DNA of 64,000 nt, from positions 608,001-672,000 of the forward strand of contig CAWJGT010000003.1 of assembly GCA_963842525.1 (NCBI GenBank). Reading direction: 5' to 3'. A program made the position numbers and the translations under genes. Shown piece by piece: positions 26,636 to 58,947 of the stretch (position 1 is its first letter; the number at the start of each line of letters is the position of its first letter). This DNA comes from an uncultured Holophagales bacterium. GTDB lineage: Bacteria > Acidobacteriota > Thermoanaerobaculia > Multivoradales > UBA5704. Below the pieces are notes generated by a model. It was not told the origin of the DNA. It worked only from the letters and a program-made list of their open reading frames with translations, and searched no databases.

Positions 26636-26653
26636 CTTAGAACGTCCCTATTC

Positions 26654-27379: not shown

Positions 27380-27397
27380 AAAGTCCCTACTTTCACC

Positions 27398-27430
27398 GCA
27401 TAACCTCATCATGAACTTCTACCCATCCCG
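27398..27430 (-). other. Putative attI-like first crossover (G/TTATGC at 27404)
   Basis: Exact complement of the first cassette's R'' (GCATAAC); no attC hairpin seen upstream. Confidence 0.6.
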
Positions 27431-27528
27431 CCACCAACTTGCCTCGGGCCTGCTTCCGACTTCCACATCCGCGAAGACAAGGTGCATCGACATACTTCTA
27501 TGTGGTTGACCTACTTACGCTTAGAGCG

Positions 27529-27573
27529 ATTCTACGGTGCTCAACCATTTTCGTCAACGACTCAGTGGTTGAC
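27529..27573 (-). promoter_or_regulatory. Sigma70 promoter (Pc-like) with overlapping palindrome
   Basis: TTGACG (27557-27552), N17, TAGAAT (27534-27529); GTCAAC-N9-GTTGAC at 27553-27573. Confidence 0.75.
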
Positions 27574-27954
27574 CGCCTATGTAATCGGGTCATGGGATGG
27601 TCCGGTTTGCTTCGGGATTGCGACAGCGTCGGCGTAAGTCACTGAGGGTTCTAAGGTTCTCTCGCCCGAGGAGAGTGAATCTGACCGCCTAAGACGCATC
27701 TGACGAAGGTGCAGAGGAGCTTAGCCGGTCGAAAATCGGCCGTAAGGCTGCCGCGGCGTGTGCGGCCTCAGGGCTGGAAGGGTCTTCTGCCGAAGCGCTT
27801 ACAGGATCGGACCACTCCTGGGGTGTGTCGGCTTAGACGGTGACCGGCCGACCGCCTATGCCGGCAGGCAGGTGCCAGAGCTTTCTTCTGCCCCGGATGG
27901 CGTGCCTGCGGCTTGGGTCGGACTGGGGTAAAATGTGTCTCCCTCGTTGGCGGC

Positions 27955-28074
27955 TTACCGGAGGCGCTCGAGGGAACGGATCCGGGTCTCGTGGGCCGCC
28001 TGGATCAGCGCGATGTCGGCGCGGACCTGCTCTTGGAGCGCGCGTCGGCGCGCTTCGTACTCGCTGCGAGTCAT
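27955..28074 (-). CDS. Short helical hypothetical protein (39 aa, possibly prematurely stopped)
   Basis: AGGAGG RBS then MTRSEYEARRRALQEQVRADIALIQAAHETRIRSLERLR; too short for the ORF track. Confidence 0.55.
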   Translation of the reverse strand: MTRSEYEARRRALQEQVRADIALIQAAHETRIRSLERLR

Positions 28075-28147
28075 GGTGTCCTCCTGGCTTTACAACACGA
28101 GCGGAGGACGGCCGAGGTCGAGCGGTCTCCGGCGCTTCCTGGTCTCG

Positions 28148-28504
28148 CAGCGGACGGTGTGGACCGCACTCAGGACGATGTTGAGTGCGTTCCGGACGGT
28201 GCGAAGCACGTTCCGGATGTTCCGCAACGCGTTCCGGATGGTTCGTTGCCCGCTTCGAACCGTCCGCAGCGCACTTCGGACGTTTCGCAATGCGCTCCGG
28301 ACGTTTCGTTGTCCGCTCAGGACGGTCCGTAATGCGTTCCGGACGGTGTTGTGCGGGCCTCGGACGATTCGCAGTGCGTTCCGGACGGTTCGCTGCAGAC
28401 TCAGAACCGTCCGCAATGCCCTCCGGATGATTCGATCTGCGTTTCGGACGGTTCTTTGTCCATTCAGAACCGTCCGCAGGGCACTCCTGACCATCCGTGG
28501 CGCG
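28148..28504. repeat. Degenerate 21-bp tandem array (about 17 units, YTCCGGACGGTTCGCARTGCG-like)
   Basis: Strict 21-bp phasing; produces heptad-like ORFs on both strands. Confidence 0.9.
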
Positions 28505-28617
28505 GTCAGGCGCCTACCAAGGCCGAGTCTCGATCGACCGGATCGCATCTGTCGCCGCTCTCTGCGGGTTGCGAACCGTCCTTCCAGCGAGGAGGTTCAT
28601 CCGCTGGCCGGTCTGGA

Positions 28618-29236
28618 TCACCTCCAGGCAAACCGCGGCTGCTCGAAGTGCGCGACCCGGGTGTCCCGGCCGTGCACGGCAACTTCGGCGAACTGGTGGA
28701 GGACGGCGGCGGTCGGCGCGTAGAGGAGGCCTCTTGGCGGCAGGGACAGGGCGAGGACCGGCGGGCCGCCCGGAGTCCCGGGCTGGAGGACGACCCTTTC
28801 CGGCGTCAAGTCTTCGATCGGCAGGAGCTCGACCGAGGCGACTTCGCGCGGATCGGGGCGCAGGACGGCATCGGGTGTCCCCCAGACGACGACCGGCGTG
28901 ATCACGAACCCCGAGCGCGTCGGGTAGTCGTCCAGGCAGCCGAGGATGTGCTCCGGCGGCAGGCTCAGTCCGACCTCTTCCTCGAGCTGCACGGAGGGCG
29001 GCGGCTTCCGCGGTCTCCCCCGGGTCGCGCCGGCCTCCAGGGCAGGCCCACTGGCCTCCGTGGCGGCTCAGCCCCGACGCCCGGACCGTGAGCACGACGC
29101 AGGCCCGGCCCTCCGCATCGGGCACGACCACGACAGCCACCGCGGCCGGCCGTCGTTCCTCGATCGGAACGCTCCGCCGCTCGAACCGGGCGAGGTGAGC
29201 TTCCAGCGTTGCCCGGAGGCCGTCTTCAAAGCGCAT
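28618..29236 (-). CDS. NUDIX CoA pyrophosphatase-like protein (frameshift near 28990)
   Basis: AAVAV, LTVRASGLSRHGGQWACPGGRRDPGETAEAAALR/ELEEEVG, PDPREVASV. Confidence 0.85.
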
Positions 29237-29242
29237 TGTGAA

Positions 29243-30232
29243 TCAGGCCTGCAAGCGCAACAGGCGCGCGGCATTGCCGCCGAGGATCCCCGATTTGTCT
29301 TCGTCCGGGATCGGCAGCGCTCGAATGGCTTCGAGCATCAGCGGGATGCTGCCGATCTGGTGGGGATAGTCGCTGCCGGCCAGGATGCGATCGGCGCCGG
29401 CGAACTCGATGGCCAGCTTCAGCGCTCCTTGGTTGAAATTCACCGTGTCATAGTAGAAATGCTGCTTCAGATATTCGGTCGGTGGCCGATCGATATGTTC
29501 GCGGCACTCCTTGAACGCGCGGTATCCGCGGTCCAGCCGCTCCGCCAGATACGGAATGGTTCCGCCGAGATGGCCGAGCACCCAGCGGATGCGCGGGAAC
29601 CGCCGCACGACGCCGCTGAAGACGAGCTTCGACGCCGCGAGCGTGGTGTCGAACAGAAAGCCGTTGAGTGGCATCAGCCAGTATTCCGACATCGCCTCGA
29701 CGCCCACCGGATAGGTGGGATGGATCATCAGCACGGCGTCGCGCTCGTTCGCGGCTTCATAGAGCGGCCAGAATCGCTCGTCGTTCAGCCCGACGCCGTT
29801 CACGTTGCTGAAGAGCATGGCGCCCGGCAGCTCCAGTTGATCCATGGCGCGGACGAGCTCCGCGGCCGAGGCTTGCGGATCGCAGAGCGGCAGCGTCGCG
29901 AGGGGTATAAACCGTTGCGGACGCTCGGAGCGCACCCGCGCGAACGCGTCATTGGTGATCTGCGCCAGCTTCACCGCGACGGCCGGCGCCTCGACGTGCG
30001 TCCCGGGCGTCGTCAGCGAAATGACCTGGACGTCCACGCCCTGCTCGTCGAGCACCGACTGCCGATAGGAAATGTCGCGGTGGCCCGGCACGATGACGTT
30101 GTAGTCGCCCGGGTAGTGGACGACCGGGTTGCCGTCGCCGTCGATCGTGATCCGGAGCGTGCTGCCGGACGGGCCCAGGGCGTCGAGGTATTCGGGCGGG
30201 TAATAATGGTTATGGAAGTCGACGATCGGCAT
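29243..30232 (-). CDS. Amidohydrolase_2 family (ACMSD-like) protein
   Basis: DFHNH, MIHP, GHLGGTIPY, YYDTV, GSDYPH. Confidence 0.9.
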   Translation of the reverse strand: MPIVDFHNHYYPPEYLDALGPSGSTLRITIDGDGNPVVHYPGDYNVIVPGHRDISYRQSVLDEQGVDVQVISLTTPGTHVEAPAVAVKLAQITNDAFARVRSERPQRFIPLATLPLCDPQASAAELVRAMDQLELPGAMLFSNVNGVGLNDERFWPLYEAANERDAVLMIHPTYPVGVEAMSEYWLMPLNGFLFDTTLAASKLVFSGVVRRFPRIRWVLGHLGGTIPYLAERLDRGYRAFKECREHIDRPPTEYLKQHFYYDTVNFNQGALKLAIEFAGADRILAGSDYPHQIGSIPLMLEAIRALPIPDEDKSGILGGNAARLLRLQA

Positions 30233-31545
30233 GACGATCACCCCCTCGGCTGGCCCATAGAACATAGACAGGCAGCCCGAGCAGGACAAGGCCGAGGCCC
30301 CAGGCGCTGTTTTCCGGCTCGGCCAGGACCTGCACGACGACGATGACGGCGGAAGCCGCCACGAAGACCGCCGGCACCAGCGGATATCCCCAGATGCGCC
30401 AGGCAGGCTTGTAGTCCGGCCGGCGCCGGAGCCGGAAGAGGCCGGCCGCCATCAGCGCGAAGAAAATCCATTCGGTGTAGATGACGCGCGTGAAGAGCGC
30501 TCGATAGGTGTCGGTGATCGCGAGGATCGAGGCCCAGAGAGCCTGGAGCACCAGCGCGCGGTGCGGCGTCTGAAACCTGGGATGGACCGTGCCGAGCCAC
30601 TTGAAGAGCAGGCCGTCCTGGGCCATCGAATAGTAGACGCGCGGCCCGGCTAGGATGATGCCGTTGACGGCGCCGAACGTCGAGACCATGACGAGCACGG
30701 CCATGAGCGAAGCCCCGCCTCCGCCGAGGAGCACGTCCGCCGCATCGGCCGCCACGCGCGTCGAGGCGCGGACCGCGTCGAGCGGCAGCACGCGCAGGTA
30801 GATGGCGTTCAGGCCGGCGTAGCACGCCGTGACGATCAGCGTTCCAAAGAGGAGCGCGCGCGGGATGGTCCGCGTTGCATCCTTCGTCTCGCCGGCGGCA
30901 TAGGTCACCATGTGCCAGCCGCCAAAGGCAAAGAGGCCCGCGACGAGCGCGAGGATGAAACCCTCGCCCGTCGCCGGGTCCGGCGCTGGCGCTGCCGGGG
31001 TTCCTTGCGCCGCGCCCTTCCAAAGCAGCCCTGCCGCGAGGAGCGCCACGATCGCCAGGAGCTTGGCGCCGGTGAACAGGTTCTGCACCAGCCCGCCGTG
31101 CCGCACGCCGACATAGTTGACGAGCGAAAGCACGAGGATGAGCGCCACGGCAGTGAGGCGCTGGCCCAGGTCGCTCATCGGCACGAAAGTGCCTGCATAG
31201 CGGGCGAAGACCATGGCGATGGCGGCGATGATCCCGGTGTGCATGCTCCAGAACATCGCCCAGCCCCAAAGGAAGCCGACGGCGGGGGAGTACGCCTCGC
31301 GCAGGAACACGTAGACCCCGCCCGTCCGTGGGAATGCCGAAGCCGAGCTCGGCGCAGGCGAGCGCGCCGAAGATCGTCAGCACGCCCGCGGCCAGCCACA
31401 CCAGCACGATGCCGCCGACCGAAGGCATGTGGCGGGTGATCTCCGACGGCTGGACGAAGATCGAAGCGCCGATGATGGTCCCGACGACCATCGCCGTCGC
31501 ATGTGTCAGTCCCAGCGGGCGGGGGAGGGCTTCCGGTTCGGCCAT
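30210..31545 (-). CDS. APC family amino acid permease (frameshift near 31330)
   Basis: GTIIGASIF, ALACAEL, LFAFGGW, VHPRFQTP; many TM segments. Confidence 0.9.
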
Positions 31546-31673
31546 GTGCGGAGGAGTTTATGCCATCCGGCGAGAGCGGCTGGGGAGAGGGCCTTCAGAC
31601 GGGCGAGGCAGAGGAGCTCCTGGGGTAGAATCGGCCGTCTCCCGGTTTTCGGCACTTCCAAAGGAGAAGGGGA

Positions 31674-33086
31674 ATGCAACAGAGCGCTCCAGGCTGGATC
31701 GACGACGCCCAGGCATGGGTAGGGACCCTGAGCGGTTGGGTATGGGGTTGGCCGATGCTGGTCCTGCTGGTGGGGACGGGCTTCTATCTGACGTTCCTCC
31801 TGCGCGGGCTTCAGTTCCGTGAGCTCGGGCACTCGCTCTGGCTCGCCCTGATCAAGCGCAAGGAGGAAGGAGCGGGGGACATCTCCCACTTCCAGGCCCT
31901 GATGACGGCTCTTGCCGCCACCGTGGGCACGGGCAACATCGCGGGCGTGGCGGCCGCGATCTCCGTGGGCGGGCCCGGGGCCCTCTTCTGGATGTGGATC
32001 ACCGGCCTGGTGGGCATGGCGACCAAGTATGCGGAGGCTGTCCTCGGCGTGAAGTACCGGGTGCTCGATCCGCGCGGCGAAATGGCGGGCGGCCCCATGT
32101 ACTACCTCGCCCGCGGCGTGGGCGGACCGCTCGGCAAGACCCTGGGGTGGCTCTTCGCCCTGTTCGCGGCCATCGCCGCTTTCGGCATCGGCAACATGGT
32201 GCAGTCCAATTCGGTCGCGGACGCGCTGCGCAGCTCGTTCGGCGTCCCGCCGCTCTGGACCGGCGCCGTCATCGCCGTCCTGGCCGGAATGGTCATCCTC
32301 GGCGGCATCAAATCGATCGGCCGGTTCACCGAATTCTTCGTGCCGGTGATGATCCTCTTCTACATCGCCGGGGCCCTCGTGGTGCTGGCGATCAACTGGC
32401 GGGGCCTGCCGGCGATCTTCGTCTACGTCCTCAAGGACGCCTTCCGTCCGGCCGCCGCGGTGGGCGGCTTTGCCGGGGCGACCCTCATGGCCGCGGTACG
32501 CATGGGCGTGGCACGCGGCGTATTCTCCAACGAGTCCGGCCTGGGCACCGGCGGCATCGCCGCGGCCGCGGCCCAGACGCGGCACCCCGTTTCGCAGGCC
32601 CTGGTCTCCATGACGCAGACCTTCATCGACACCATCGTGGTCTGCTCCATGACCGGCTTCGTCATCATCGCGACCGGCTCGTGGACGAAAGTCGATCCAA
32701 CGACCGGCCTGGGCTTCACCGGCTCACCCCTCACCGTGGAAGCCTTCAGCACCGGCCTGCCCGGGACCTCGGGCGGAGTCGTCGTCTCGATCGGCTTGGC
32801 CCTCTTTGCGTTCTCGACGATCCTGGGCTGGTCCTACTACGGCGAGCGGGCGATCGAGTACCTGCTGGGGGCGAAATCCATCCTTCCCTACCGCCTGGCG
32901 TTCATCGCCGCCTCGTTCCTCGGCTGCTGGGTGCTGAGCCATCCAGGAAGCGGCGGCTTCCAACTCGTCTGGTCCTTCGCCGACGTGATGAACGGCCTCA
33001 TGGCCTTCCCCAACCTGGTGGGGTTGTTGCTGCTCTCCGGAGTGGTGGCGATGGAGACGCGGACGTATCTGGCGGCGAGGAAGTGA
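31674..33086 (+). CDS. Sodium:alanine/glycine symporter (AGCS family)
   Basis: [46 protein letters not shown]. Confidence 0.95.
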
Positions 33087-33207
33087 GGGCCGGTCGCCGA
33101 GTTTGCGAAGGATTCCTTGAGCGTCCGGTCCTGAAAACCCGGGCCCGCCTTCGCCGTATCTCTTCCAGCTCGTCGCTGCGCCCTGCTTGGGTGTCAAGGA
33201 GGCCTCG

Positions 33208-34662
33208 GTGAGAGAGTCTGTGCTTGCATTTCTTCTGCTGATTTTCATCACCAACGGCCCGGCCGCGGCGGAACCGGCCGGCGATCCGGTCGAAGGCCTC
33301 TGGCTCGGCACCGCCGGAACGGAGAGGGAGAAAATCGAGGTGGGGCTCGAATTCCGGCGCGACGCCGAGGGCGCTCTCCAGCTCTTCCTCACCCAGCCGA
33401 TCGCGAATTACTTCGGCCTCCAGGCGCCGGGCACCGTGCGGCGCGAGGGAGACCAGGTCGTCGCCGAAGGGTTTGCCCTCTCGCTGCGGCTCCGCGAAGA
33501 CCGGCTCGAAGGGACCTACCCCGGGCCCAACAGCCCGGCCTCCTTCCATCGCGTCTCGCAGCTTCCGGTCCCGACGCCGATTCCCGATGTCCCGGCCGGC
33601 CCGGGACCGGCCTGGCAGACCCGTCTCAATGGGCAGATCTTCGCCTCGCCGGCTGTCTTCGACGGCAAGGTCTACATCGGCACGACCGGCGGCGTCTTCA
33701 ACGCGGTCGACGCCCGCGACGGAAAGATCCTCTGGGCGGTCGCCGCCGGTCGGCCGATCCTCGGCACCGCGCTGGTCACCGCGGACGCCGTCTTTTTCAC
33801 CTGCGACAACGGCTATCTCTTCCGGCTGCGCCGCGAAGACGGCAAGGAGGTCTGGCGCTACGATCTCGGGGATTCGCGCGCTTCGCGCGTGCTCGGGCAC
33901 CCGGCGGTCTTCAACTGGGACTGGCACGGAGCGAAGCCGGCTCTCGCGGACGGCGTCGTCTACGTCGGTGCGGGGGATGGAGGTTTTCACGCTGTCGACG
34001 CGGCGAGCGGCCAGCGGCGCTGGCGCTTCGCGACCGGCGACCGCGTGCGCGGCGGTGCTGCCATCGCTGGTGATCGCGTCGTCTTCGGCAGCGCCGATCA
34101 CTTCGTCTACGCCCTGGACCGCGCGACCGGCAAGGAGCTCTGGAAGCACGACACGGGAGTGGAGATCGAGGACGAGCCGCTCATTGCCGGCGACCGGGTC
34201 TTCATCGGCAACCGGGGAGGCGGCCTCTACGCGCTCGCGCTCGCGACCGGCGAGCGGCTATGGAAAACCTTTTTCTGGGGATCGTGGCTGGAGTCGACGC
34301 CCGTCCTGGCCGACGGCGTGCTCTACATCGGCTCATCGGATCTGCGCCGGGTCAGCGCGATCGCACCCGAGGACGGCCGCGTGCTCTGGCGCACCGACGT
34401 CTACGGCTGGACGTTCGGCACACCGCTCCTCGTCGGAGACCGGATCTTCGCCGGCGCGGCCGGCGGCGACCCGTACTTCATCCAGCACGTCGCAAGCTTT
34501 TCGATGCTCGACCGCGCGACCGGCAAGCTCCTCCGCCGCTACCCGCTGCCCGAGGTCCCCGGAGCCCACCAGTGGGGCATCGCGGGCTCTCCGGCCCTCG
34601 CCGGAGATCTTGTTGTCGTCTCGACGATTCAGGGTGGGTTGATGGCGTTTCCGGTGAAGTAG
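33208..34662 (+). CDS. Secreted PQQ-like beta-propeller repeat protein
   Basis: AGGAGG RBS with GTG start, signal peptide, repeated AxDxxTGxxxW motifs. Confidence 0.9.
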   Translation: MRESVLAFLLLIFITNGPAAAEPAGDPVEGLWLGTAGTEREKIEVGLEFRRDAEGALQLFLTQPIANYFGLQAPGTVRREGDQVVAEGFALSLRLREDRLEGTYPGPNSPASFHRVSQLPVPTPIPDVPAGPGPAWQTRLNGQIFASPAVFDGKVYIGTTGGVFNAVDARDGKILWAVAAGRPILGTALVTADAVFFTCDNGYLFRLRREDGKEVWRYDLGDSRASRVLGHPAVFNWDWHGAKPALADGVVYVGAGDGGFHAVDAASGQRRWRFATGDRVRGGAAIAGDRVVFGSADHFVYALDRATGKELWKHDTGVEIEDEPLIAGDRVFIGNRGGGLYALALATGERLWKTFFWGSWLESTPVLADGVLYIGSSDLRRVSAIAPEDGRVLWRTDVYGWTFGTPLLVGDRIFAGAAGGDPYFIQHVASFSMLDRATGKLLRRYPLPEVPGAHQWGIAGSPALAGDLVVVSTIQGGLMAFPVK

Positions 34663-34676
34663 ACGCCCTGGACGCG

Positions 34677-34865
34677 CTAGGGAACGGAAGCTTCAATCTC
34701 TACCGTCAGGTCGTTCTGACCGGCGAACCCCCCGTTTGCCCCATAGGTTACGAGCAGTACCCAGGTGGCGAAATCTGACCCCAGCCCCTCTTGAGCAGCT
34801 TTGATGGCCAGATGCAGAGCCACATTGATGTCCCCGTTGTCCGCAGTACCCGAGAATCGTGCCAT
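34677..34865 (-). CDS. Small hypothetical protein (62 aa)
   Basis: GGGAGG RBS and its own promoter upstream. Confidence 0.7.
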   Translation of the reverse strand: MARFSGTADNGDINVALHLAIKAAQEGLGSDFATWVLLVTYGANGGFAGQNDLTVEIEASVP

Positions 34866-34904
34866 GCCGAGTAACCTCCCTTTGCTTTGTTTACGCTTGG
34901 TGCC

Positions 34905-34949
34905 ACCCTATGGCGTTTGCCGGCTTTCGTCAACGGCCCGGCGGTTGAC
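34905..34949 (-). promoter_or_regulatory. Sigma70-like promoter with GTCAAC-N9-GTTGAC palindrome
   Basis: TTGACG (34933-34928), N17, TAGGGT (34910-34905); same surrounding motif as 27549-27581. Confidence 0.6.
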
Positions 34950-35121
34950 CCGCCTATGGAACGGGGCCGCCGGATCGCACCAACTCTGTCCCGTGCATCG
35001 GCGACGGCGAGTTCTTTTTGCGTGAGGTCCGATCTCCCTTGACACTCCCATTGCGATCCTTTATGCTTCGAGACTAAATGCCGGGGAAGGGCTGTAGAAT
35101 GTAGCGGGGGGGTAGGAACGT

Positions 35122-35355
35122 ATGTACAAGATCACTCTGGACATCGAGCAGCTTCCTGAGGGGCCGTACCTGGGTACGAGCCCGGATCTACCCGGCCTCG
35201 TGGTGCAGGCAGACAGCGTCCAGGAAATTCTTCGGCTGGCCCCCGACGTGGCGCACGACCTCATCGCAGTGATGGTTGAAACCAACCAGCAACTGCCGTC
35301 GGGTATTGAGACGGTCACTGCTCCGGGGCGTGTCCCGGTCCTCGTACCCGCTTGA
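35122..35355 (+). CDS. hicB: HicB-like antitoxin
   Basis: EGPYLGTSPDLPGLVVQADSVQEIL; overlaps the downstream hicA. Confidence 0.75.
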   Translation: MYKITLDIEQLPEGPYLGTSPDLPGLVVQADSVQEILRLAPDVAHDLIAVMVETNQQLPSGIETVTAPGRVPVLVPA

Positions 35356-35558
35356 CCTACCGAGAGCTGACCCGCCACCTCCGGCGGCTCGGTTGCGAGC
35401 TGATACGCCAGAGCAAGGGGAGTCACGAGATCTGGCACAACCCGAGTCAGAATCGATCGGCGGTCATTCCCAGACATCCAGGCGATCTCCCGGCCGGGAC
35501 GCTTCGGGCCATTCTCAAGGGTCTCGGTATCACCCCAGACGACCTGATCCCTCGGTAG
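35352..35558 (+). CDS. hicA: HicA toxin
   Basis: RQSKGSHEIW, IPRH, GTLRAILK. Confidence 0.9.
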   Translation: MTYRELTRHLRRLGCELIRQSKGSHEIWHNPSQNRSAVIPRHPGDLPAGTLRAILKGLGITPDDLIPR

Positions 35559-35573
35559 CCCTCAGGCGAGGCT

Positions 35574-35750
35574 ATGTCGAAAGCGTCCAAGCGGCCGGCC
35601 ATCGAGAGCAATGTCGTGCGCACGGAGCTTCAACGAGCCGTGGAGGAAGCGGAGCGAGATCTTGCCGAAAACCGCTGGACGGAGCACTCCGAAGTTGAGG
35701 CGAAGCTGAAGTGGTGGGCGAGCCGGGAAGACGAAGTCCATCGCCCATGA
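35574..35750 (+). CDS. Small antitoxin-like hypothetical protein (58 aa)
   Basis: GAGG then ATG; MSKASKRPAIESNVVRTELQRAVEEAERDLAENRWTEHSEVEAKLKWW...; not in the ORF track. Confidence 0.45.
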   Translation: MSKASKRPAIESNVVRTELQRAVEEAERDLAENRWTEHSEVEAKLKWWASREDEVHRP

Positions 35751-35804
35751 CTCGCGACGAAGGGAACTGTGGTTCTCTCGCAGCTCCTCTGCTGGCGGCG
35801 CTTC

Positions 35805-41145: not shown

Positions 41146-41261
41146 GTCATGGCCGGGGCATACATACTATAGCATTCTTACCTGTCGCCAGCATCGCGCG
41201 TCAGGTTGGGTCCAAACCCCGTCGACCCGCGACGGCGGTAAACAGACACCACGGGAATTTG

Positions 41262-41923: not shown

Positions 41924-41985
41924 ACGTGAAGCTCCTCAGTCTTCATCATAGTGCATGCGTTTCGCAGTAGCAAACAGCGCAAGGA

Positions 41986-42669: not shown

Positions 42670-42724
42670 GGCGGCGCACTTTTATCACATCCGGGGAGAT
42701 TCGTCGCTTGAAGCGTTACGTACT

Positions 42725-47844: not shown

Positions 47845-47866
47845 GGGGCCGGCTCCCGCCGCTCCT

Positions 47867-48694: not shown

Positions 48695-48761
48695 GCCGTG
48701 GTCTCTCCGTGGTCCTGCGGCCTTTCGGCCGGGGGGAGAGCATAACAGTCCCCTCGGTGCA

Positions 48762-49779: not shown

Positions 49780-49872
49780 GGCGGATCTTTTACCACAAGA
49801 TGCGCCCTCGGTTCTCGGCAGATGACACCGCTCCCAGGAGAGCTCGTCGCGGCATACAATCCTGGGCTCGCC

Positions 49873-50934: not shown

Positions 50935-51156
50935 TCTGCCGCAAAATCGTTGCCGCGTAATGTGCGGCGTAATCTTGGCCTCTCATAATGCCCCCAGAGG
51001 TTGAGGCTGGCGGCCCAGACCAGGGGCCAGGGGACGCGCAGGGCTTCGGCTCGGGCGAAGTCCGCGCCAGAGGGTGTAGCACACCAGCCTCAACCTTCCC
51101 TCCACGGCGGTTCTCCCGAGCCGCCTCTTTTTTGTCCAGATGTGCCGGAAAGAGCC

Positions 51157-51900
51157 TCACCATCCCATCATCTCGATCGAATAGGGGAGCATCTTCCGCC
51201 ACCAGGGCCAGTCATGATCGACGTCGTGCCCCCAGACATCCAGGAAGTGGGGGATCTCCTTACGATGGAGCAGCTCCGAGAGCTGCCGCGAGGCGTGCGG
51301 CGCCTCGTAGGCCCCCTGGCCGGTGAGGACGTGGATCTGGCAGGACGTGCGCAGGAGGTGGAGGCTGTGCCCCTCCAGGTTGGGCAGATACCAGGCCGGG
51401 TTGTTGAAGTAGACGTTGTCGTCGCTGTAGCCGTGGAGGTAGTCCGGCGCCAGGTCGCAGAAGCCGCTCATGGCAATGGCGGCGTCGAAGAGGTCGGGCC
51501 GGCGAAACAGTGTGTTGGCCGCATGGAAGCCGCCGAAGCTCGCCCCGGCGGTGGCGACGCGCAGGTCGGGGTTCTGGCAGGCTCCCCGGATGTAGGGGAC
51601 CACCTCCTCCTCGACATAGCGGGCGTAGAGGGCCTGCCGCCGCGCCTTTTCGGGCACGGGCAGCCCCTCGTCCATCCACGACAGCTTGTTGATGCTGTCG
51701 ATCGAGAAGATGCGGACCCGTCCAGCCTCGATCATCGGCCCGGCCGCGCCGACGAGCCCGAAGCGTTCGTTTTCCAGGAAATCCGCCGCGGCGGTGGGGA
51801 AGAGCAGCACGGGGTGACCCCAGTGCCCGTACGAGACGATGGGCATGTCCTTGTCGAGGATCGGGCTGTGCCAGCCGTCGATCTGCTGTCGCAGGTCCAT
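51157..51900 (-). CDS. Esterase (alpha/beta hydrolase)
   Basis: YGHWGHPVLLFPT, GASFGG, HDWPWWRKM. Confidence 0.9.
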   Translation of the reverse strand: MDLRQQIDGWHSPILDKDMPIVSYGHWGHPVLLFPTAAADFLENERFGLVGAAGPMIEAGRVRIFSIDSINKLSWMDEGLPVPEKARRQALYARYVEEEVVPYIRGACQNPDLRVATAGASFGGFHAANTLFRRPDLFDAAIAMSGFCDLAPDYLHGYSDDNVYFNNPAWYLPNLEGHSLHLLRTSCQIHVLTGQGAYEAPHASRQLSELLHRKEIPHFLDVWGHDVDHDWPWWRKMLPYSIEMMGW

Positions 51901-52047
51901 TCCGCTCCCTCCTGCCGTGAGCTGCCCGGCATGTGGGCGGGGAGGATATCCGGGAGACGGACGGGGGGCAAGCGAAGGCCGTGGGCGAGCTGCACGATGG
52001 CTGTGGTAACCTCCAACGGCGACGCCGTCCCGTCCTTCCGAGCTGCC

Positions 52048-53626
52048 ATGCCGCGCTTCTTCAACACCGCCGGTCCCTGCAATCCGGCCGATCACTACAT
52101 ACTGCCGCCGGAGCGTCGCCTGCCGGATCTGCGGGAGCTGATCGAGCGCAAGCTCTACTTCACCCTCCATGCGCCCCGCCAGTCGGGGAAGACCACCTGC
52201 CTGGAGACCATGGCGCGTCGCCTTGACAGCCGAAGGGAGGTATGCGCCGCAATGCCTCGCAAGCTGCGAGACCGGCCAGACGGCGGGGAGCGATGTGGAG
52301 CGTGGGGTCGGAGCGGTGCTGCAGCTCGACCGAGCGGCGGGCGGCGGAGCTTCCGCCGGATCTTCGGCCTGAGCCGCTCGCAGGCTATGCGGCTATTGAG
52401 GCGGAGAGCCGCTTGGTGGCCTATCTCGACGCCTGGTGCCAGAGACCGCCCGGCCGGTACGTGCTGTTCCTCGACGAGATCGATGCACTGCGTGACGAGT
52501 CGCTCTTGTCGGTGCTGCGCCAGCTCCGGTCCGGGTATTCGACCCGGCCGCCCGCGTTCCCGCAGTCGGTGGCGCTTGATCGGTCTGCGGGACGTCCGGG
52601 ATTACCGCGTCCGGCTCCGTCCGGAAGCCGAGAGCCTCGGGACCTCTTCGCCGTTCAACATCAAGGTCCGCTCCCTCACCCTCGCCAACTTCTCGCAGGA
52701 CGAGGTCGCCGAGCTCTATGGCCAGCACACCGCGGAGACCGGACAGGTTTTCACGCCCGAGGCGGTCGCCCTTGCGTGGGAGTTGACCCGCGGTCAGCCG
52801 TGGCTGGTCAATGCCCTGGCCGCCGAAGATGGTGGACCGTCTGGTGCGCGACCGGGCGGTTGCGGTCGAGGCTCGGCACGTCGAGCAGCGCCAAGGAGAT
52901 CCTGATCGAGCGCCGCGATACGCACCTCGACTCGTTGGTTGACCGGCTGCGCGAGCTGCGCGTGCGGCGCGTCCTCGAGCCGATCCTGGCAGGGGAGCTG
53001 CTCTCTCCCGACCTGTTGGAGGACGACATCCAGTTCGTGAAGGATCTGGGGCTGGTCGTATCCGGCCCGGCGGGCTTGGAGATCGCCAACCCGATCTACC
53101 GCGAGGTCATCCCCCGTGCCCTGGCCTGGGTCGTCCAGGAGTCGCTGCCGGTGCCCCGGGCGCCGTTCATTGCGCCGGACGGGACCTTGCGGATCGATGC
53201 CGCTCCTTGACGAGTTTCACCGAATTCTGGTGCCAGCACGCCGAGTTTTTCCTGGAGCGTCAGCCCTATTCCGAGGCGGCGGCACAGCTCGTCTTCATGG
53301 CATACCTGCAGCGGATCGTCAACGGCGGAGGTTTCATCGACCGGGAGTATGGGGTGGGCCGCGGGAGGATCGACCTCTGTGTCCGCTGGCCGCATCCCGG
53401 CGGCCTTCAGGTCTGGGCGGCCGAGCTCAAGGTCTGGAGGAATGGCCGTCCCGATCCTCTCTCGGAGGGTCTCAAGCAACTCACGGCCTACCTGGCTCAT
53501 CTGGGCCTCGATTCCGGCGCTCTGATCCTCTTCGACGGCCGGCCCGCCACCCCACCCATCCCGGAGCGCTGTGTGCGGACTGAGGTCGAGCACGAGGGCC
53601 GCAGGATCACCATCCTGCGGCTGTAA
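52048..53626 (+). CDS. P-loop ATPase with C-terminal PD-(D/E)XK-like domain (frameshifted)
   Basis: MPRFFNTAGP, HAPRQSGKTT, LDEIDAL, SPFNIK, TRGQPWLVN, REYGVGRGRIDL, AELK. Confidence 0.85.
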
Positions 53627-53649
53627 GTGTGGGATTCCCCGCTCCCGAG

Positions 53650-53726
53650 CCTCAGGTGCCAGGCACTTATTCTCCTCAGGTGCCAGGCATTTATTCTGGG
53701 GGATCTGCACTTATTCTGGGGGATCT
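53650..53726. repeat. Tandem copies of the GGCACYTATTC terminal motif
   Basis: 24-bp duplicate CCTCAGGTGCCAGGCAYTTATTCT (53650-53697) and 20-bp duplicate GCAYTTATTCTGGGGGATCT (53687-53726). Confidence 0.85.
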
Positions 53727-53760
53727 AGACACGGATGGCGGGAACAGGTATTCTCAGTTC

Positions 53761-54069
53761 ATGAGTGCCCGTCCCGCCAGTGCTCCTGGTCAGCCGATCC
53801 TTCTGATCGTCGAGGATCTCGAAGACCCGCGGTTTTCCGTCTCCTCGCCGCTCCGGGTCGAAGCCTACTGGGAGCCCGAAGGGGTGACGGTCCACCATCC
53901 GGAGTCTGACGTTTTCGGCTATGGCAAGGACGAGGCCGAGGCCTTGGACGATTTTCGCGCGGCGCTCGCCGAACTGTTCGTCACCCTGGACAATGACCGC
54001 GTCTCTCTCGGCCCAGCCCTTCAGGGTGTCTTGCGGGTCCTCGATTTCCACCTTCACAAGCGTTCGTGA
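53761..54069 (+). CDS. HicB-like protein
   Basis: VFGYGKDEAEALDDFRAAL, typical of the HicB N-terminal fold. Confidence 0.6.
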   Translation: MSARPASAPGQPILLIVEDLEDPRFSVSSPLRVEAYWEPEGVTVHHPESDVFGYGKDEAEALDDFRAALAELFVTLDNDRVSLGPALQGVLRVLDFHLHKRS

Positions 54070-54076
54070 TCCGCCT

Positions 54077-54355
54077 GTGTCGATCAGCGCCGAGGTCCTG
54101 GACCGAGCCTGGGGGAAGGTGGGGATGTCGGTGCAGGATCGGGGTGTAGACCGATGGGCCTATCTGTTCGTGGATGGCAGGCGAGTCATCGCGACGCGGC
54201 GGTCGAGAGGCTCGGGCAAGATCCCGGGTCAGGTTCCGCACCTGATCCGTCAGCAGATGAAGCTGAACGAGGAGCAATTTCGTGCCTTGGTCGATTGCCC
54301 TTTGACCCGCGAGGGCTATATCCAGATCCTTCGCGACAAGGGCCTTCTCGGGTAG
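54077..54355 (+). CDS. HicA-like protein
   Basis: IRQQMKLNEEQFRALVDCPLTREGY C-terminus; adjacent to the HicB-like gene. Confidence 0.6.
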   Translation: MSISAEVLDRAWGKVGMSVQDRGVDRWAYLFVDGRRVIATRRSRGSGKIPGQVPHLIRQQMKLNEEQFRALVDCPLTREGYIQILRDKGLLG

Positions 54356-54530
54356 ATCTCTCGATGGGGAGAGAGGTGACAAAGACTTCGAAAGCGGCTC
54401 GGGGTCGTGTTGTGCGCGGTAGAGGGTCGTCCTCGGAGTCCTCGGTTTCCAGGTAGGCTTGGCTGAGGATGTCCCCTGCCAGGTAGAACGTTCGGCTGCA
54501 CGGGCCAGGAAACGCATGGCACTTATTCGG

Positions 54531-54778
54531 GGCCGCATCCCGGCGGCCTTCAGGTTTGGGCGGCCGAGTTGAAGGTCTGGAGGAATGGCCGTCCCGATCC
54601 TCTCTCGGAGGGTCTCAAGCAACTCACGGCCTACCTGGCTCATCTGGGCCTCGATTCCGGCGCTCTGATCCTCTTCGACGGCCGGCCCGCCACCCCACCC
54701 ATCCCGGAGCGCTGTGTGCGGACTGAGGTCGAGCACGAGGGCCGCAGGATCACCGTCCTGCGGCTGTAGGTGTGGGAT
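54531..54778 (+). repeat. Direct-repeat copy of the ATPase gene 3' end (partner 53388-53635)
   Basis: 248 bp, 5 mismatches by eye. Confidence 0.95.
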
Positions 54779-54790
54779 AGCCGCGGGGCC

Positions 54791-55152
54791 GCGGACAAGC
54801 TCAAGGATGGCGATCGGAATGCGCGGTTCCCGCCAGGGAGCTTTCCGCTTCATCTGGCCTTTGTCAGCGATCAGCCGCCCCGTGATTTCATTCCCGTGCC
54901 TGCTGGGTAGCCGAACCGGCTGCCAATCAACTCTCAGAAGCTCTCTCCCTTCTCCTGCGTGGCGACAGAGTTGTGCCCAGCCTACAGCCAGTCGCCGTCA
55001 GATCCCCAAAGAGTGCGGGAAAAATCGCTCTGATCCTCCTCGGGTGCGTCCAAGAGGCTCGCTCAGGCCCCTCGGGAGGATGAATACAGGCTGGCCGCAG
55101 GCCCCGCGGGCCTCCCATACTCAAGGTTCCCCAAGAATCCCCAGGCACCTAT
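54791..55152 (+). mobile_element. Second, shorter Y1 transposase 3' remnant with tail
   Basis: Encodes ADKLKDGDRNARFPPGSFPLHLAFVSDQ; alignable to 25016-25372; ends CCAAGAATCCCCAGGCACCTAT. Confidence 0.8.
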
Positions 55153-55245
55153 GGGTGGAAAACGTTTTCCTTGCTAGCCCGATTCGAGGGCACAGGAATC
55201 AATGGGGGATCCCAAGTTATTGAGATCCCAAATAAAGCATTCAAT

Positions 55246-56385
55246 CTATCGATTTGGAATCTGCAAGCTAAACCGTTTACGCGTGCCGGGCTCGATCGCG
55301 CCGAGATGGATCGTGCGGATCTCGTTGTAGGGCGGAACTAGTCCTTCACCGCCGGGGCCTTCGTAGTGATAACGCAGTTGGAGATCTTGCGCCGCAGTTG
55401 CGGCAGGGAGGGCGAAGCCGTTTCCACGCAGTTCGTTCCAAGCCTTCGTGTTAAACAGTTGCGCACTACCTTCGCGCGAGCCGAAATAGCCGACGGGCTC
55501 ACCCGCCCAAAGCTCGAACTGCAGCGTGTACCATGCTTGCTCGTAGTCGCCGCTGAGATCGAAGGCGAGAAACGCGATGTCGGGGTGCGGATTCTCAACA
55601 AGCGAGAAATCCAGTTTGTATTCGCCGCCTCCCGCTATCGAAAAGATAAGCTGACTCGCCGACGGATAGCCGGCGTTGCCATCGTTCGCGTTCTTCCAGG
55701 CGTTGCAAATGACGATCTTGAGACGCGGATCCCCTTTGAATTCCCAGGTTGGAATGCGGCCGTCGCGATCGGTTTCGCGTGCGAGCATTTCGGCCAGTCG
55801 CAACTCGTACTCCCAATTCATCACCGCGCCGCAGAGCACCAATGCCCCTTGGAGCGACCCGCCATTGTCGTCCTTCACCTCGACGTCAATGCGCCATTCC
55901 TCAGCCGTGTCGAGCGGACCTTCGCCGCCGGGCGGGCGCGGGAGAACCACGGTCGTGGTGACCAGAGAACCTGCGAGCAATGCTGTGATGATCTTTAGCC
56001 AAGAGTTGATGGCCGACCAAGTGCCGCTCACCAGTGCCGCAACAAAGAGAGCGTTCAAGGCCCAGGCGGCCGGGGTGAATGCCAGCCAATGGTTTTCGAA
56101 AACGATGGTGCCGCCGAGGGCCGCCCACAGTGCGCTCAAGGACAGAAGGACAAGCGACACGCTCACCCGCTGCTGCTTGCGATAGAGTGCGGCGGCGAGG
56201 ATTGCAGTGACCGCGATGACGAGAATGACGGCGGCGCCTGCAGTGAGCGAGGCTGCGAAAACCGAGACGGCCGAACCCACGAAAAAGATCAGGAGTCCAA
56301 TACCCACGAAGAAAAGCAGCACGACGCCCGCGCCCTCATTGGGGTCGTGACCGATTTTGCCTTTGCTGCTATCCAAGTTTCGCAT
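55246..56385 (-). CDS. Membrane protein with soluble C-terminal domain (gene cassette)
   Basis: About 5 TM helices; starts just after attC 56413-56485. Confidence 0.8.
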   Translation of the reverse strand: MRNLDSSKGKIGHDPNEGAGVVLLFFVGIGLLIFFVGSAVSVFAASLTAGAAVILVIAVTAILAAALYRKQQRVSVSLVLLSLSALWAALGGTIVFENHWLAFTPAAWALNALFVAALVSGTWSAINSWLKIITALLAGSLVTTTVVLPRPPGGEGPLDTAEEWRIDVEVKDDNGGSLQGALVLCGAVMNWEYELRLAEMLARETDRDGRIPTWEFKGDPRLKIVICNAWKNANDGNAGYPSASQLIFSIAGGGEYKLDFSLVENPHPDIAFLAFDLSGDYEQAWYTLQFELWAGEPVGYFGSREGSAQLFNTKAWNELRGNGFALPAATAAQDLQLRYHYEGPGGEGLVPPYNEIRTIHLGAIEPGTRKRFSLQIPNR

Positions 56386-56412
56386 GTGTTTGAGGTTGTC
56401 GATCGGCGCGAC

Positions 56413-56485
56413 GGCGAACGCTCAGTAGATGAGCGGCGGAACCGCGCTTTTGCGGTTTCCGTCCGCTCGACTGCTGGGGTTCGCC
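56413..56485 (-). other. attC site (73 bp)
   Basis: GGCGAAC...GAGCGGACGGAAACCGC...GCGGTTCCGCCGCTC...GTTCGCC hairpin with extrahelical A. Confidence 0.85.
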
Positions 56486-56509
56486 GCTGCCATTCTCCAT
56501 TTAGGCCTG

Positions 56510-57154
56510 CTATAGCGTGGCCTTTGGTAAGTGCTTCTCCAAGGCCGCCTTTATCGAGCCCGTGATCTCCGCATACAGTCTATCTGCCTCAGAGTAGAAG
56601 GAAGCAAGTCGCTCGATCGAGGTATTATAGGTATGTTCATCCATGGTTTCCTGACCGAGGCTGAGCCTTTCTGGAGGTCGCGTGATCCGGTCGACCAAAA
56701 CGGAAGCATCCTGGAGTTTTCTCTTGAAACGATGGAGCATGTTGAACACAGACTCATCGACAAATGCGCGGTATTTATAAAGATTCTCCGTGAGAAGGTA
56801 GAGAGCAGGATCAAAGGCTTTAAGAGTATTGCGATTCCTCTCCTCCTTAAACCAGAGCAGCGTCTTCCATTCAGCGTGATCAAGGGGAAAAATCGCTAGA
56901 ACATCACGACACGCGTTGCGCAGGCGATAGACGATCTCTAAAATTTCCGGATAAATCGTATTCCGCCGTTCAAGTACTGCGAGAGCTTGGTGCTTCTCGA
57001 TCTCTATAGCCATCTTGGCCCTCTCCTCGATCTCCTTGAATCGCAGATCCATCTTCTTCGTGAGCCAAGTCTTGAGCCAATAGGCAACCCCACCCCCAAT
57101 AGTCGAAATCAAGGCGGCGTTAAGGAGTAAATCAGAAACGATAGAGATTGGCAA
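56510..57154 (-). CDS. Hypothetical protein, N-terminal TM plus helical domain (gene cassette)
   Basis: 214-aa low-GC ORF between two attC sites. Confidence 0.8.
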   Translation of the reverse strand: MPISIVSDLLLNAALISTIGGGVAYWLKTWLTKKMDLRFKEIEERAKMAIEIEKHQALAVLERRNTIYPEILEIVYRLRNACRDVLAIFPLDHAEWKTLLWFKEERNRNTLKAFDPALYLLTENLYKYRAFVDESVFNMLHRFKRKLQDASVLVDRITRPPERLSLGQETMDEHTYNTSIERLASFYSEADRLYAEITGSIKAALEKHLPKATL

Positions 57155-57194
57155 TAGTATTTCCCTTCGTGTCTTATCGGATCTGGCTGTGGAC

Positions 57195-57254
57195 GGCGAA
57201 CGTCTTGGGCGTTCACCGGGGGCGCAGCCATCCGGTGCAACGCCCGGGTTGGCC
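57195..57254 (-). other. attC site (60 bp)
   Basis: GGCCAAC CCGGGCG TTGCACCGGATGG...CCCCGGTGAA CGCCCAAGAC GTTCGCC. Confidence 0.85.
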
Positions 57255-57431
57255 GCCGAATCGCCTTCGCTCGGAACCCGCCGCGCTGGCCACTTCGCCT
57301 TGCTCTGGCCCCCGAACGTCTTCGGTACAGTTCAATATGTACATGCGATCTTCGCCCTTGATGAACTAGAAAAATTGTACATCAGAAGCATGGGCAGGCA
57401 AAGAGCCAAGACGGAGATCGAGGCAACCAAC

Positions 57432-57580
57432 GTGCCCCCATCCCCATCGGGGCTCGCGCCCCTCGGCCGCGCCGTCGCCCCTACAGGGCTTGGAGAAATG
57501 GGGACGCTGCCTACCTGGGGTCGCCGCGCCCCCGGCGCTCTGACCCCAGGCTCTATGCCGACGCCCCTTCGGGGCTTTGC
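57432..57580. repeat. REP-like palindrome cluster
   Basis: GCCCCTACAGGGC, CCTGGGGTC...GACCCCAGG and GCCCCTTCGGGGC hairpins. Confidence 0.7.
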
Positions 57581-57815
57581 AGCGTGGCAGTTTGGTGCCG
57601 GAGCGCAGCGGAGGCGCCAATTTGCGTGTCTTTCTCAGTGGAAGGACCGCGGCAAGGGGCGCAGCCTCTTGCGGACCGCGCCGCAGCAGTTCCTCAAGCA
57701 AGCAAGATATGAGTCCATGCCGATCGCTATGACGGGTCCCCGGTCCCGAGAGACCGAGGGCCAGCCCTACGCTCCGCCGACCACGGTGGCGCCGAGCTAT
57801 TACTGCCAACGAGCT

Positions 57816-58080
57816 TCAGCCGGGGTGAGGAATGTCACTGAACTCTTGGAAGAGACGCGTTAGCGCCTCCGGACCATGAACACCAGTGGAGCTCACAAAA
57901 ACCTCAACCTCGATCGAACCGTCTGACAAGAATTCGACCTCCCATCGCTCACCGGGCACGGCGATCAGCACCATAATGGCTTCGTCACGATTGTGCGCAA
58001 GCGAGTAGGAGATTTTTGGGCCTGATTGAGCTGTCCCAGAAACTCAAGAAGGTCGGGTATGAGTGGGCTCACCGCGTCAT
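57816..58080 (-). CDS. Small hypothetical cassette protein (frameshifted)
   Basis: Reads ...DLLEFLGQLNQA/KISYSLAHNRDEAIMVLIAVPGERWEVEFLSDGSIEVEVFVSS...; follows attC 58108-58169. Confidence 0.6.
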
Positions 58081-58107
58081 CCTTAGCACTCTATGCGAAC
58101 ATCCGAC

Positions 58108-58169
58108 GGCCAACACGGTCTTGCTGCTGAGCGGCGGCGTAGCCGTCCGCTCCGGCAGCGTTGTTAGAT
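58108..58169 (-). other. attC site (62 bp)
   Basis: ATCTAAC...GAGCGGACGG CTACG CCGCCGCTC...GTTGGCC; the upstream stop TAA lies in R''. Confidence 0.85.
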
Positions 58170-58766
58170 GCCTTGCAGCTGCAATTCACTCCACGCTTCC
58201 TCCAGCACTTCCTTGGGATCAGTCCCTCGCTCAATCTCCTTCACGAACAATAGACTAACGAAGTCGATGTCTGGACTTTCTCCCATCTGGACTTTGTAGG
58301 AATACGGCAAGACGTAGAGACCGTACCTAATCCTCCGGTCGCCTCTGATTGTGTGCACAGCGCCAATGACGACCGGGAGGAAATTTTTACCACTTCGTGT
58401 CTCCACAAGTGGAAATCTTCGCGCAATATAAGTTACGATTCGATTCTCGGCCTTTGAGAGATCGATATTATAGGGAAACTCTACAACCTCCGGCTCCAAG
58501 TCGAGAGAGTCTGGCCAAAGAATTTTCAGCTGCTGGAGTGCCGCATCGGATGGGTTTTGAACGCTCAGGCGAAGCAGGTTTGAGTTATTCTCAAGGCTCG
58601 CCGAGAGAATAAGCCGCTTATCAGCTTCAAGCCTTGCTTCGGCCAATTCATCGGCCGTCTTGACTCTTCGGTAGTTCAGAATCCCCACCGCGAGTGCGGC
58701 GGCCGTCACTAATAAACCGACCAGTGCTATCCAATTCTTACGGCCTCTCTCTTGACCGTTTGTCAT
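58164..58766 (-). CDS. Hypothetical protein with N-terminal TM (first cassette)
   Basis: ATG at 58766 is the first start after the crossover at 58794; low GC. Confidence 0.8.
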   Translation of the reverse strand: MTNGQERGRKNWIALVGLLVTAAALAVGILNYRRVKTADELAEARLEADKRLILSASLENNSNLLRLSVQNPSDAALQQLKILWPDSLDLEPEVVEFPYNIDLSKAENRIVTYIARRFPLVETRSGKNFLPVVIGAVHTIRGDRRIRYGLYVLPYSYKVQMGESPDIDFVSLLFVKEIERGTDPKEVLEEAWSELQLQGI

Positions 58767-58787
58767 GTGCCTGTTCTTTAGTGTGGT

Positions 58788-58820
58788 ATCTAACCTCTGC
58801 CTCACATATTCGGCGGCACC
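58788..58820 (-). other. Putative attI-like first crossover (G/TTAGAT at 58794)
   Basis: Exact complement of the first cassette's R'' (ATCTAAC). Confidence 0.6.
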
Positions 58821-58918
58821 CCGCCCGCAGGCCAATACGACACAACCTGCGGGTTGACTCCACGGTTGGTCCCAGGGTGTCGAGCGTGCAGGGTGCTTAT
58901 CCTCTTCGACTTAAGCGC

Positions 58919-58947
58919 ACTCTACACCACTTCCTAACCTGCGTCAA
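58919..58947 (-). promoter_or_regulatory. Sigma70 promoter (Pc-like)
   Basis: TTGACG (58947-58942), N17, TAGAGT (58924-58919), pointing into the cassettes. Confidence 0.7.

Follow-up and report, generated by a model that had tools for sequence, protein, structure and literature searches.

Cassette loci without an integrase gene in a Thermoanaerobaculia genome: probable front ends of co-oriented chromosomal integrons

What are two arrays of gene cassettes that open with a promoter-like sequence and a recombination border and have no integrase gene beside them? The question is raised by two loci in a 64,000-nucleotide stretch of DNA (hereafter the window, C3:608001-672000) of genome G000, a Thermoanaerobaculia genome of 9.95 Mb in 34 contigs, with ~68% GC and 96% completeness, whose contigs are cited below as C1, C3, C4, C9, C19, C23, C25 and C34. 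Low-GC islands (54-60%) occur in the window at 25-28 kb, 35-42 kb and 55-60 kb. The preliminary description of the window had put the two loci forward as candidate satellite integrons, that is, non-autonomous platforms served in trans by the integron integrase (IntI) of the host. For comparison, 61 genomes of the same family were used, including 5 congeners, and 10 intI loci of relatives were examined in detail. It is very probable that the loci are the promoter-proximal ends of co-oriented chromosomal integrons that lost intI, leaving platforms of an attI site and a cassette promoter (Pc) that may now be frozen. They are read as attI/Pc platforms minus intI because two sister copies keep a broken intI upstream and because relatives with an intact IntI have the same layout.

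A promoter-like sequence of the form TTGACG-N17-TAGART opens both arrays. It occurs exactly twice in the window, both times on the minus strand (0.01 expected in the pattern scan), and 12 times in the genome, where ~0.4 would be expected by chance according to a base-composition estimate. Each of the two is the top sigma-70-like match on the cassette strand of its island (10 and 9 of 12), and from this consensus an outward Pc is predicted to read into the array at each locus. From the last T of the -10 box to the G of GAG-G↓TTA (the arrow marks the crossover) there are 125 nt at both loci, and the minus-strand coordinates thus bear out what the preliminary description had reported. The sequences around the promoters belong to two platform families, A (n = 3) and B (n = 15, by BLAST), with ~18 copies in total in the genome. 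Their representatives at locus 1 and locus 2, respectively, are:

27401-27868, minus strand: family-A platform block, with border GATGAG-G↓TTA (G at 27404), delimited by BLAST and alignment of sister copies
27529-27557, minus strand: Pc-like promoter of locus 1, TTGACG-N17-TAGAAT, with 10/12 sigma-70 consensus matches
58789-59044, minus strand: family-B platform block of 256 bp, with border GGCAGAG-G↓TTA (G at 58794), 15 BLAST copies
58919-58947, minus strand: Pc-like promoter of locus 2, TTGACG-N17-TAGAGT, with 9/12 sigma-70 consensus matches

The family-A block consists of an upstream part (27753-27868), a 124-bp stretch (27629-27752) that is missing from the copy on C1, the promoter, a 125-nt leader and the border; the family-B block has ~95 nt upstream, followed by the promoter, a 125-nt leader and the attI-like border. 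BLAST places the sister copies of family A at C1:199951-200290 and, in part, at C9:690866-691068. In the alignment, the window and C1 copies are identical up to GATGAGGTTA and diverge beyond it; the C1 promoter has TTGACG as its first hexamer and TAGGCT as its second. The 15 copies of family B are 72-100% identical, the full-length ones all stopping at query position 252-258, and they agree up to GGCAGAGGT(T), after which the sequence is unrelated. In 10 of these copies, the common sequence halts at (A/G)GGT(T/C), and what follows often resembles the right ends of this genome's attC sites (GTTCGCC, GTTCGGC, GTTGGAC, GTTAGAC), so that 10 different first cassettes stand at one conserved border. 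Since the sister copies match up to the border and then diverge, both GAG-G↓TT junctions are real borders of conservation, and copy comparison points at both loci to an attI-type site with a G↓TT crossover. What the two families have in common is little more than GAGGTT, the promoter and a short segment behind its -10 box.

A promoter of the form TTGAC(G/C)-N17/18-TAnnnT is present in all 15 family-B copies, with TTGACG in 14 and a 17-nt spacer in 14, at an overall identity of 72-91%. The distance from the -10 box to the G spans 118-125 across the 10 copies with a recognisable junction and is 125 in four of them. As family B spans this range, chance has some part, within constrained limits, in the identical 125 of the two window loci: the "identical geometry" of the preliminary description stands for the two loci, but it is not a fixed property of the platforms. 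The window was also scanned for Rfam families and tRNAs, of which none were found; the leader is therefore no known RNA family.

The genes behind the borders are bounded by attC sites, which were sought with a covariance model (R1) built from ten aligned sites, picked by eye behind cassette genes of both loci and of the sister locus on C9. R1 finds exactly five attC sites in the window, at 55-76 bits, the next matches being no better than E 0.39. They have the form R''(AAC)-L''...L'-R'(GTT), an imperfect hairpin at cassette ends, at both loci: the bottom strands form hairpins in which AAC pairs with GTT and the inner stems are bulged, with fold z-scores from -2.3 to -8.0. The cassettes of the two loci, listed in the order in which the promoters would read them, are:

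26707-27412, minus strand: gene of locus-1 cassette 1, HEPN (RiboL-PSP type; Pfam PF18735, E 8.6e-8, in the second open reading frame (ORF) only)
26651-26715, minus strand: attC ending locus-1 cassette 1 (R1 59.1 bits, E 5e-13; bottom-strand hairpin)
25679-26635, minus strand: gene of locus-1 cassette 2, 318 aa with a Schlafen/AlbA_2 domain (Pfam PF04326, E 8.1e-11)
25530-25604, minus strand: attC ending locus-1 cassette 2 (R1 63.3 bits; fold z-score -3.5)
58766-58164, minus strand: gene of locus-2 cassette 1, an ORF of 200 aa with an N-terminal membrane anchor
58105-58172, minus strand: attC ending locus-2 cassette 1 (R1 63 bits; hairpin fold)
57192-57257, minus strand: attC ending locus-2 cassette 2 (R1 76 bits)
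57154-56510, minus strand: gene of locus-2 cassette 3, an ORF of 214 aa
56410-56488, minus strand: attC ending cassette 3 and opening cassette 4 of locus 2 (R1 55.2 bits; fold z-score -8)
56385-55246, minus strand: gene of locus-2 cassette 4, an ORF for a 379-aa membrane protein

The HEPN gene consists of two overlapping ORFs (27412-27044 and 27057-26707) and is apparently frameshifted, and no clearly intact gene can be recognised in cassette 2 of locus 2. A GC-rich dispersed repeat lies inside the latter cassette (~57432-57582), with ~40 partial copies in the genome at 70-97% identity. The three proteins encoded by the cassettes of locus 2 belong to no Pfam family, and PADLOC returned only one marginal match for 8 island proteins. 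Cassette 4 was also found, at ~95% identity, on a soil-metagenome contig (X2, record 13), which parts from the window sequence at the G of an attC G↓TT (56419).

In the genome as a whole, at least 56 attC matches in many small arrays were obtained with R1 at E<=0.01, a count that is a lower bound because scoring took in 150 of the 19,990 first-look candidates. In an alignment of 43 sites from the genome and its relatives, whose fitting to R1 favours the pairing statistics, 86.6% of cells pair (70.8% in shuffles), 13 of the 18 pairs vary on both sides, and the covariation score is 0.366 against 0.109, a value reached by 0/500 shuffles (slid controls <=0.103). R1 also detects attC sites downstream of the intact IntI of four relatives (L017, L018, L021 and L024), none of which was used in building the model. 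Behind the platforms, at least one same-strand attC lies within 7 kb of 9/15 family-B and 2/3 family-A copies (11/18 in all).

An IntI gene adjoining the array, the mark of a complete integron, was found at neither window locus. TIGR02249 has no match in the window and none above the cut-off in the genome, and an intact IntI was not found in the 96%-complete assembly. When an intact IntI of the same genus was used in tblastn (E<=1), IntI-specific similarity was found in the genome on C9 and C19 only, in four places:

C9:1070914-1071162: intI fragment, 71% identical
C9:1073687-1073905: intI fragment, 48% identical
C9:849785-849871: intI fragment, on the strand opposite to another family-B copy that is ~2.3 kb away
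C19:416805-416870: intI fragment, 86% identical, covering the final 22 codons of the gene

The first two derive from a single intI that an IS21 has interrupted and that also bears an internal deletion. This broken gene is co-oriented with, and directly upstream of, a family-B copy (C9:1074153) behind which come five attC cassettes. The fragment on C19 lies ~220 bp upstream of a family-B-like copy (C19:417096) with three attC sites behind it. Decayed intI sequence upstream of the platforms, named in the preliminary description as what would count against its proposal, is thus present at these two sister copies but upstream of neither window platform, where tblastn gave no intI even at E<=10 (2.8-kb search space). 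The weak IntI-like strings seen there were dismissed as noise, as their best E was 0.16-0.24 in 2.8 kb and strand and position were inconsistent. Three identical 325-aa recombinases were also considered as the host IntI and rejected: ~40 residues of the IntI-specific region are missing, and each adjoins an IS91-type Y2 transposase. They belong instead, as accessory integrases, to an IS91-family element. This element, a Y2 transposase with a Zn domain plus the accessory tyrosine recombinase, is listed on the minus strand in three identical copies (C3:356797-358857, corresponding to L008 4797-6857; C9:1900160; C25:539600), with attC sites on the same strand within ~1-3 kb behind each.

Among the relatives, IntI above the TIGR02249 cut-off is encoded in 14 of the 61 family genomes, including 2 of the 5 congeners, and attC sites lie downstream of the intact intI and are co-oriented with it. 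A TTGAC-N16-18-TAnnnT match stands 302-345 bp past the intI stop in 7 of the 10 loci; two loci with short flanks have a promoter match at +181 and +186, and one has none. (G/A)AGGTT follows 105-131 nt past the start of the -10 box, and in one relative (L015) the promoter is plainly family-B-like. Since the relatives have the same promoter-border-attC layout, the window loci have their counterpart in the sequence that immediately follows intI in the clade's working integrons. BLAST of the platform and of the neighbouring array, Y1 and unit-X modules (described below) against the 10 intI loci gave no match. The exact family-B promoter had 0 matches in a scan of contigs from other genomes; a looser pattern was found on 3 contigs, from metagenome-assembled genomes (MAGs) of Thermoanaerobaculia. 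In one Thermoanaerobaculia MAG contig (L023, DATFNZ010000182.1, 3544-7688), a 20-bp array, a family-B-like promoter and three attC sites follow one another, with no IntI in 4.2 kb upstream.

These comparisons bear on the idea that the blocks have nothing to do with integrons but are small mobile or repeat elements that carry a promoter, with the GTT border and the spacing arising by chance. The blocks are indeed short (~256 and ~340 bp), multi-copy and sharply bounded, and six family-B copies have no attC behind them. The copies on C9 and C19 are however directly downstream of intI remnants, a promoter occupies the same place past the intact intI of relatives, same-strand attC sites follow 11/18 copies, and the repeat scan of the window revealed no inverted repeat pair bounding the blocks. 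Such an origin is highly improbable.

A more serious competitor, although still an unlikely one, is a version of the satellite idea in which platforms are kept without intI, and an IntI acting in trans, encoded on a plasmid, on another incoming element or in a part of the genome missing from the assembly, still loads and shuffles them. It would fit the ten different first cassettes at one border and the promoter in 15/15 family-B copies, the similar left edge of many of these copies, the array, promoter and three attC sites of L023, and the soil contig that leaves the window sequence at an attC crossover. The literature also accepts that cassettes in clusters of attC sites lacking an integron-integrase (CALINs) are movable in trans, as stated in a study of Xanthomonas (10.1101/2025.06.18.660453; see also PMC4889954). 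Against this stand the lack of an intact IntI in the assembly, where the fragments are broken by IS21, deletion or truncation, the damage to cassette genes (the split HEPN gene and locus-2 cassette 2 without a clear gene), and the shortness of the arrays (1-5 cassettes). The family-B copies are moreover 9-28% apart, and because of this divergence they are old or from different donors rather than freshly multiplied. As there is no intact IntI in the assembly and no trace of intI in the window, service in trans by a host IntI, as the preliminary description had it, finds no support here. What does survive of that description is the picture, drawn from sequence, of attI-like borders and an outward promoter, true attC cassettes and many copies, with no integrase gene alongside in the window.

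Several observations also weigh against the loss of intI from ancestral integrons. R1 was built from eye-picked attC sites of this genome and so leans toward them. With the same model, no attC was found within 7 kb behind 6/15 family-B copies and 1/3 family-A copies. In 9/15 family-B copies the left edge falls at query positions 1-16; so similar an edge hints at a common mode of spread and would not obviously result if intI had been deleted at random in each copy separately. Beside the intact IntI of two same-genus genomes, neither family A nor family B was detected, and one of these contigs stops 290 bp past intI. Finally, with 96% completeness and 34 contigs, an IntI could lie in the missing part of the assembly.

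If the loci are the front ends of integrons that lost intI, the following course can be proposed. The ancestral layout would have been intI, Pc, attI and cassettes, all on one strand, as is usual in this acidobacterial family, and the integrase gene would then have been lost. The sigma-70-type TTGACG-N17-TAGART promoter, recognised by its consensus, would read through the leader of ~125 nt, in which AAC/GTT inverted repeats could bind IntI. By comparison of copies, the leader ends at the attI crossover GAG-G↓TT, and it is there that attC-bounded cassettes have been inserted. Because no intact IntI is present, the platforms would now be fixed expression sites for the cassettes captured last, although an IntI arriving from outside could perhaps still use them. 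What surrounds the loci (tandem arrays, a Y1-like remnant, duplicated gene tails) would be neighbours, or scars of the acquisition and erosion of islands.

In class 1 integrons, a fixed Pc upstream of the attI1 G↓TT crossover expresses promoterless cassettes. The window platforms are alike in principle, but there is no sequence similarity, and Pc lies downstream of intI here and inside intI there. To our knowledge, attI sites have been described in only a few classes of integron, most of them clinical. The present genome provides ~18 natural copies that differ in their first cassettes, and from these both the attI border and the cassette promoter of an environmental integron lineage can be read off directly.

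A CALIN is defined as at least two attC sites without IntI nearby, with origins that include loss of intI and rearrangement (2016, PMC4889954). With two attC sites ~1.1 kb apart at locus 1, three within 1.8 kb at locus 2 and no integrase nearby, the window loci are CALINs by this published definition, with attI retained. The preliminary description, which could not match them to a described element, is superseded on this point, since they fit both the CALIN definition and a co-oriented layout, of the kind known from Treponema, that is seen intact in relatives. They share with CALINs the attC cluster without IntI; here, however, the attI border and the Pc-type promoter are kept, in ~18 diverged copies in one genome, and the definition is silent on attI (PMC4889954). 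According to the same paper, half of the CALINs are in genomes without IntI, intI pseudogenes lie near 15/279 CALINs, and Pc cannot drive a CALIN that has split off (PMC4889954). A co-oriented intI is a known atypical layout of the chromosomal integrons of Treponema (PMC3607928); the likeness lies in the co-oriented layout, seen in the relatives with an intact IntI, while the difference is that the phylum is another one and that the window copies are without intI. In Xanthomonas, chromosomal integrons have repeatedly lost or inactivated intI, leaving stable arrays, and CALINs occur at other loci (10.1101/2025.06.18.660453). There is one ancestral platform there, at ilvD, whereas many are dispersed here and intI is mostly deleted without trace. 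In the literature searched, supplementary tables aside, no description was found of a genome with ~18 diverged attI/Pc front ends and no integrase. That a genome can keep many entry platforms after losing its integrase bears on the origin of CALINs and on their continued usability.

The surroundings of the platforms remain to be placed. The preliminary description had given the order gene tail, Y1 remnant, cassettes, promoter and 21-bp array for both loci, which is correct, with a pairing of the tails that differs between them, and had treated these parts as one platform. Along the plus strand, locus 1 runs from a gene-tail copy (24012-24132) through a Y1-like remnant (24689-25425), the cassettes and the promoter to a 21-bp array (28187-28507), and locus 2 from a tail copy (54531-54778) through a Y1 remnant (54781-55152), the cassettes and the promoter to an array (59232-59715). 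The joint unit does not hold up, as arrays, Y1 remnant and duplicated tails each have their own genome-wide distribution; they are neighbours and not parts of the platform. These neighbours are:

24012-24132, minus strand: remnant NUDIX-gene 3' end, repeated directly at 28610-28730 (93% over 121 nt), with matching protein tails
24163-24397, minus strand: 19-bp palindromic tandem array (repeat scan)
24402-24688, minus strand: 287-bp "unit X", whose C4 paralogue overlaps the 3' end of a p130-family gene
24689-25425, plus strand: 3' part of a Y1 (HUH) transposase-like gene and its end, 81% identical to the full 317-aa copy on C19
28187-28507, no strand: 21-bp tandem array downstream of an intact NUDIX gene (repeat scan)
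54781-55152, plus strand: short remnant of the Y1-like gene end, abutting the last locus-2 cassette, 84-85% identical to 25006-25126 and 83% to 25378-25425
59232-59715, no strand: 21-bp tandem array (105-bp higher-order) between a p130 gene and the locus-2 platform (repeat scan)
59820-60203, minus strand: p130-family gene, 128 aa from a MAK start, lying upstream of the array and the locus-2 platform in the same orientation

The tandem array of locus 1 is host context and not part of the platform; in a congener (G037), a 21-bp array with a different unit occupies the same position past the NUDIX tail. The p130 family has 32 paralogous loci in the genome (e.g. C25:136902-137348 and C34:674634-675113) and 15-32 in most relatives. 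Within 1.2 kb downstream of 21 of these 32 loci there is a tandem array with a period of 19-23 bp, or double that, each with its own palindromic unit, and 8/32 lie within 3 kb of an attC or a family-B copy. Arrays with a period of ~20 bp are also found upstream of the intact intI in 5-6 of the 10 loci of relatives, and a p130 gene in 3 of them. The p130 protein matches no Pfam family, and its nearest Atlas clusters are unnamed acidobacterial hypotheticals. Its predicted structure is an all-helical three-helix bundle (mean confidence, pLDDT, 79), for which the PDB held no fold match at E<=0.001. That integrons stand regularly beside short palindromic arrays and a gene family of ~130 aa provides a testable lead on where integrons settle. 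A wider proposal would be that the Thermoanaerobaculia integron is a distributed system, in which a single IntI, often present only for a time, loads in trans many platforms that lack an integrase, are kept under selection and each adjoin a palindromic array of repeats of 19-21 bp. We regard this as unlikely; if it were true, the chromosome would have many scattered sites for capture and expression, whereas the recombinase, which carries a risk, would stay rare.

The duplicated gene tails suggest another possibility, namely that the unit from array to array is one mobile island, inserted site-specifically at the 3' ends of genes, with the platform as mere cargo. The NUDIX-tail pair flanks the whole locus-1 island, since the partner copy (28610-28730) sits on the far side, and a tandem array lies just inside each end of this 121-bp repeat. 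Direct repeats of 67-487 bp with 88-95% identity likewise flank at least six integron clusters, and in G037 the NUDIX tail is duplicated around a different, unrelated island of 2.1 kb. This last island has, however, neither attC nor platform, the array past the NUDIX gene is host context, no integrase is present, and repeat lengths and target genes vary from case to case. At locus 2, both tail copies (53388-53635 and 54531-54778; 98%) are on the left, flanking an 895-bp insert. Repeats so variable and diverged are better explained by homologous or homology-facilitated recombination than by a dedicated site-specific element, and a single mobile island is accordingly improbable; the duplicated tails may instead be traces that recombination left when the islands were acquired. 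The congeners yielded no clean empty site for either island. The NUDIX gene is kept in 5/5 congeners, where the far flank was not found within 1.5 kb, and the histidine-kinase flank of locus 2 is kept in three, with nothing of the island upstream.

Clusters with flanking direct repeats of 283-487 bp (90-94%) are found at C1:197580-203334, C19:415949-425288, C9:689398-693589 and C3:1282066-1290354. The NUDIX gene next to locus 1 (28514-29236, minus strand) is read in two frames, with the Pfam match in one and the conserved C-terminus in the other, which may be due to a frameshift or an assembly error. The insert of locus 2 (53636-54530), between the copies of a PDDEXK_9 gene tail, contains overlapping ORFs of 146 aa and 144 aa without a Pfam family, in a toxin-antitoxin-like layout, and is bounded by GGCACTTATTC motifs related to the end of the Y1-like element.

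The Y1-like remnant of locus 1 is convergent with the cassettes and cuts off a third one; its end (...CCCCAGGCACCTAT) is present twice. The full copy on C19 (317 aa; L011 7118-8071, minus strand) has an HUH-like NHYHLV motif, and its match to Y1_Tnp is weak (E 0.0028, below the cut-off). Six copies of the end motif (...CCCCAGGCACCTAT) occur in the genome, three of which abut the arrays of the window and one of which lies 343 bp past an attC on C19. The sites are at 25359-25425 and 55139-55152 in the window and at C19:420879, C3:1292836 and C23:393623. Most of the six copies abut cassette arrays, and the element may prefer to insert there.

A third, degenerate family-A-like promoter (34891-34950; 70% over 60 nt) is followed by a 62-aa ORF and, according to the R1 scan of the window, by no attC; the same scan gave no attC site in the island at 35-42 kb. 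On the other side of this promoter (34680-35560) lies a HicB/HicA-like pair, judged by eye from the translation.

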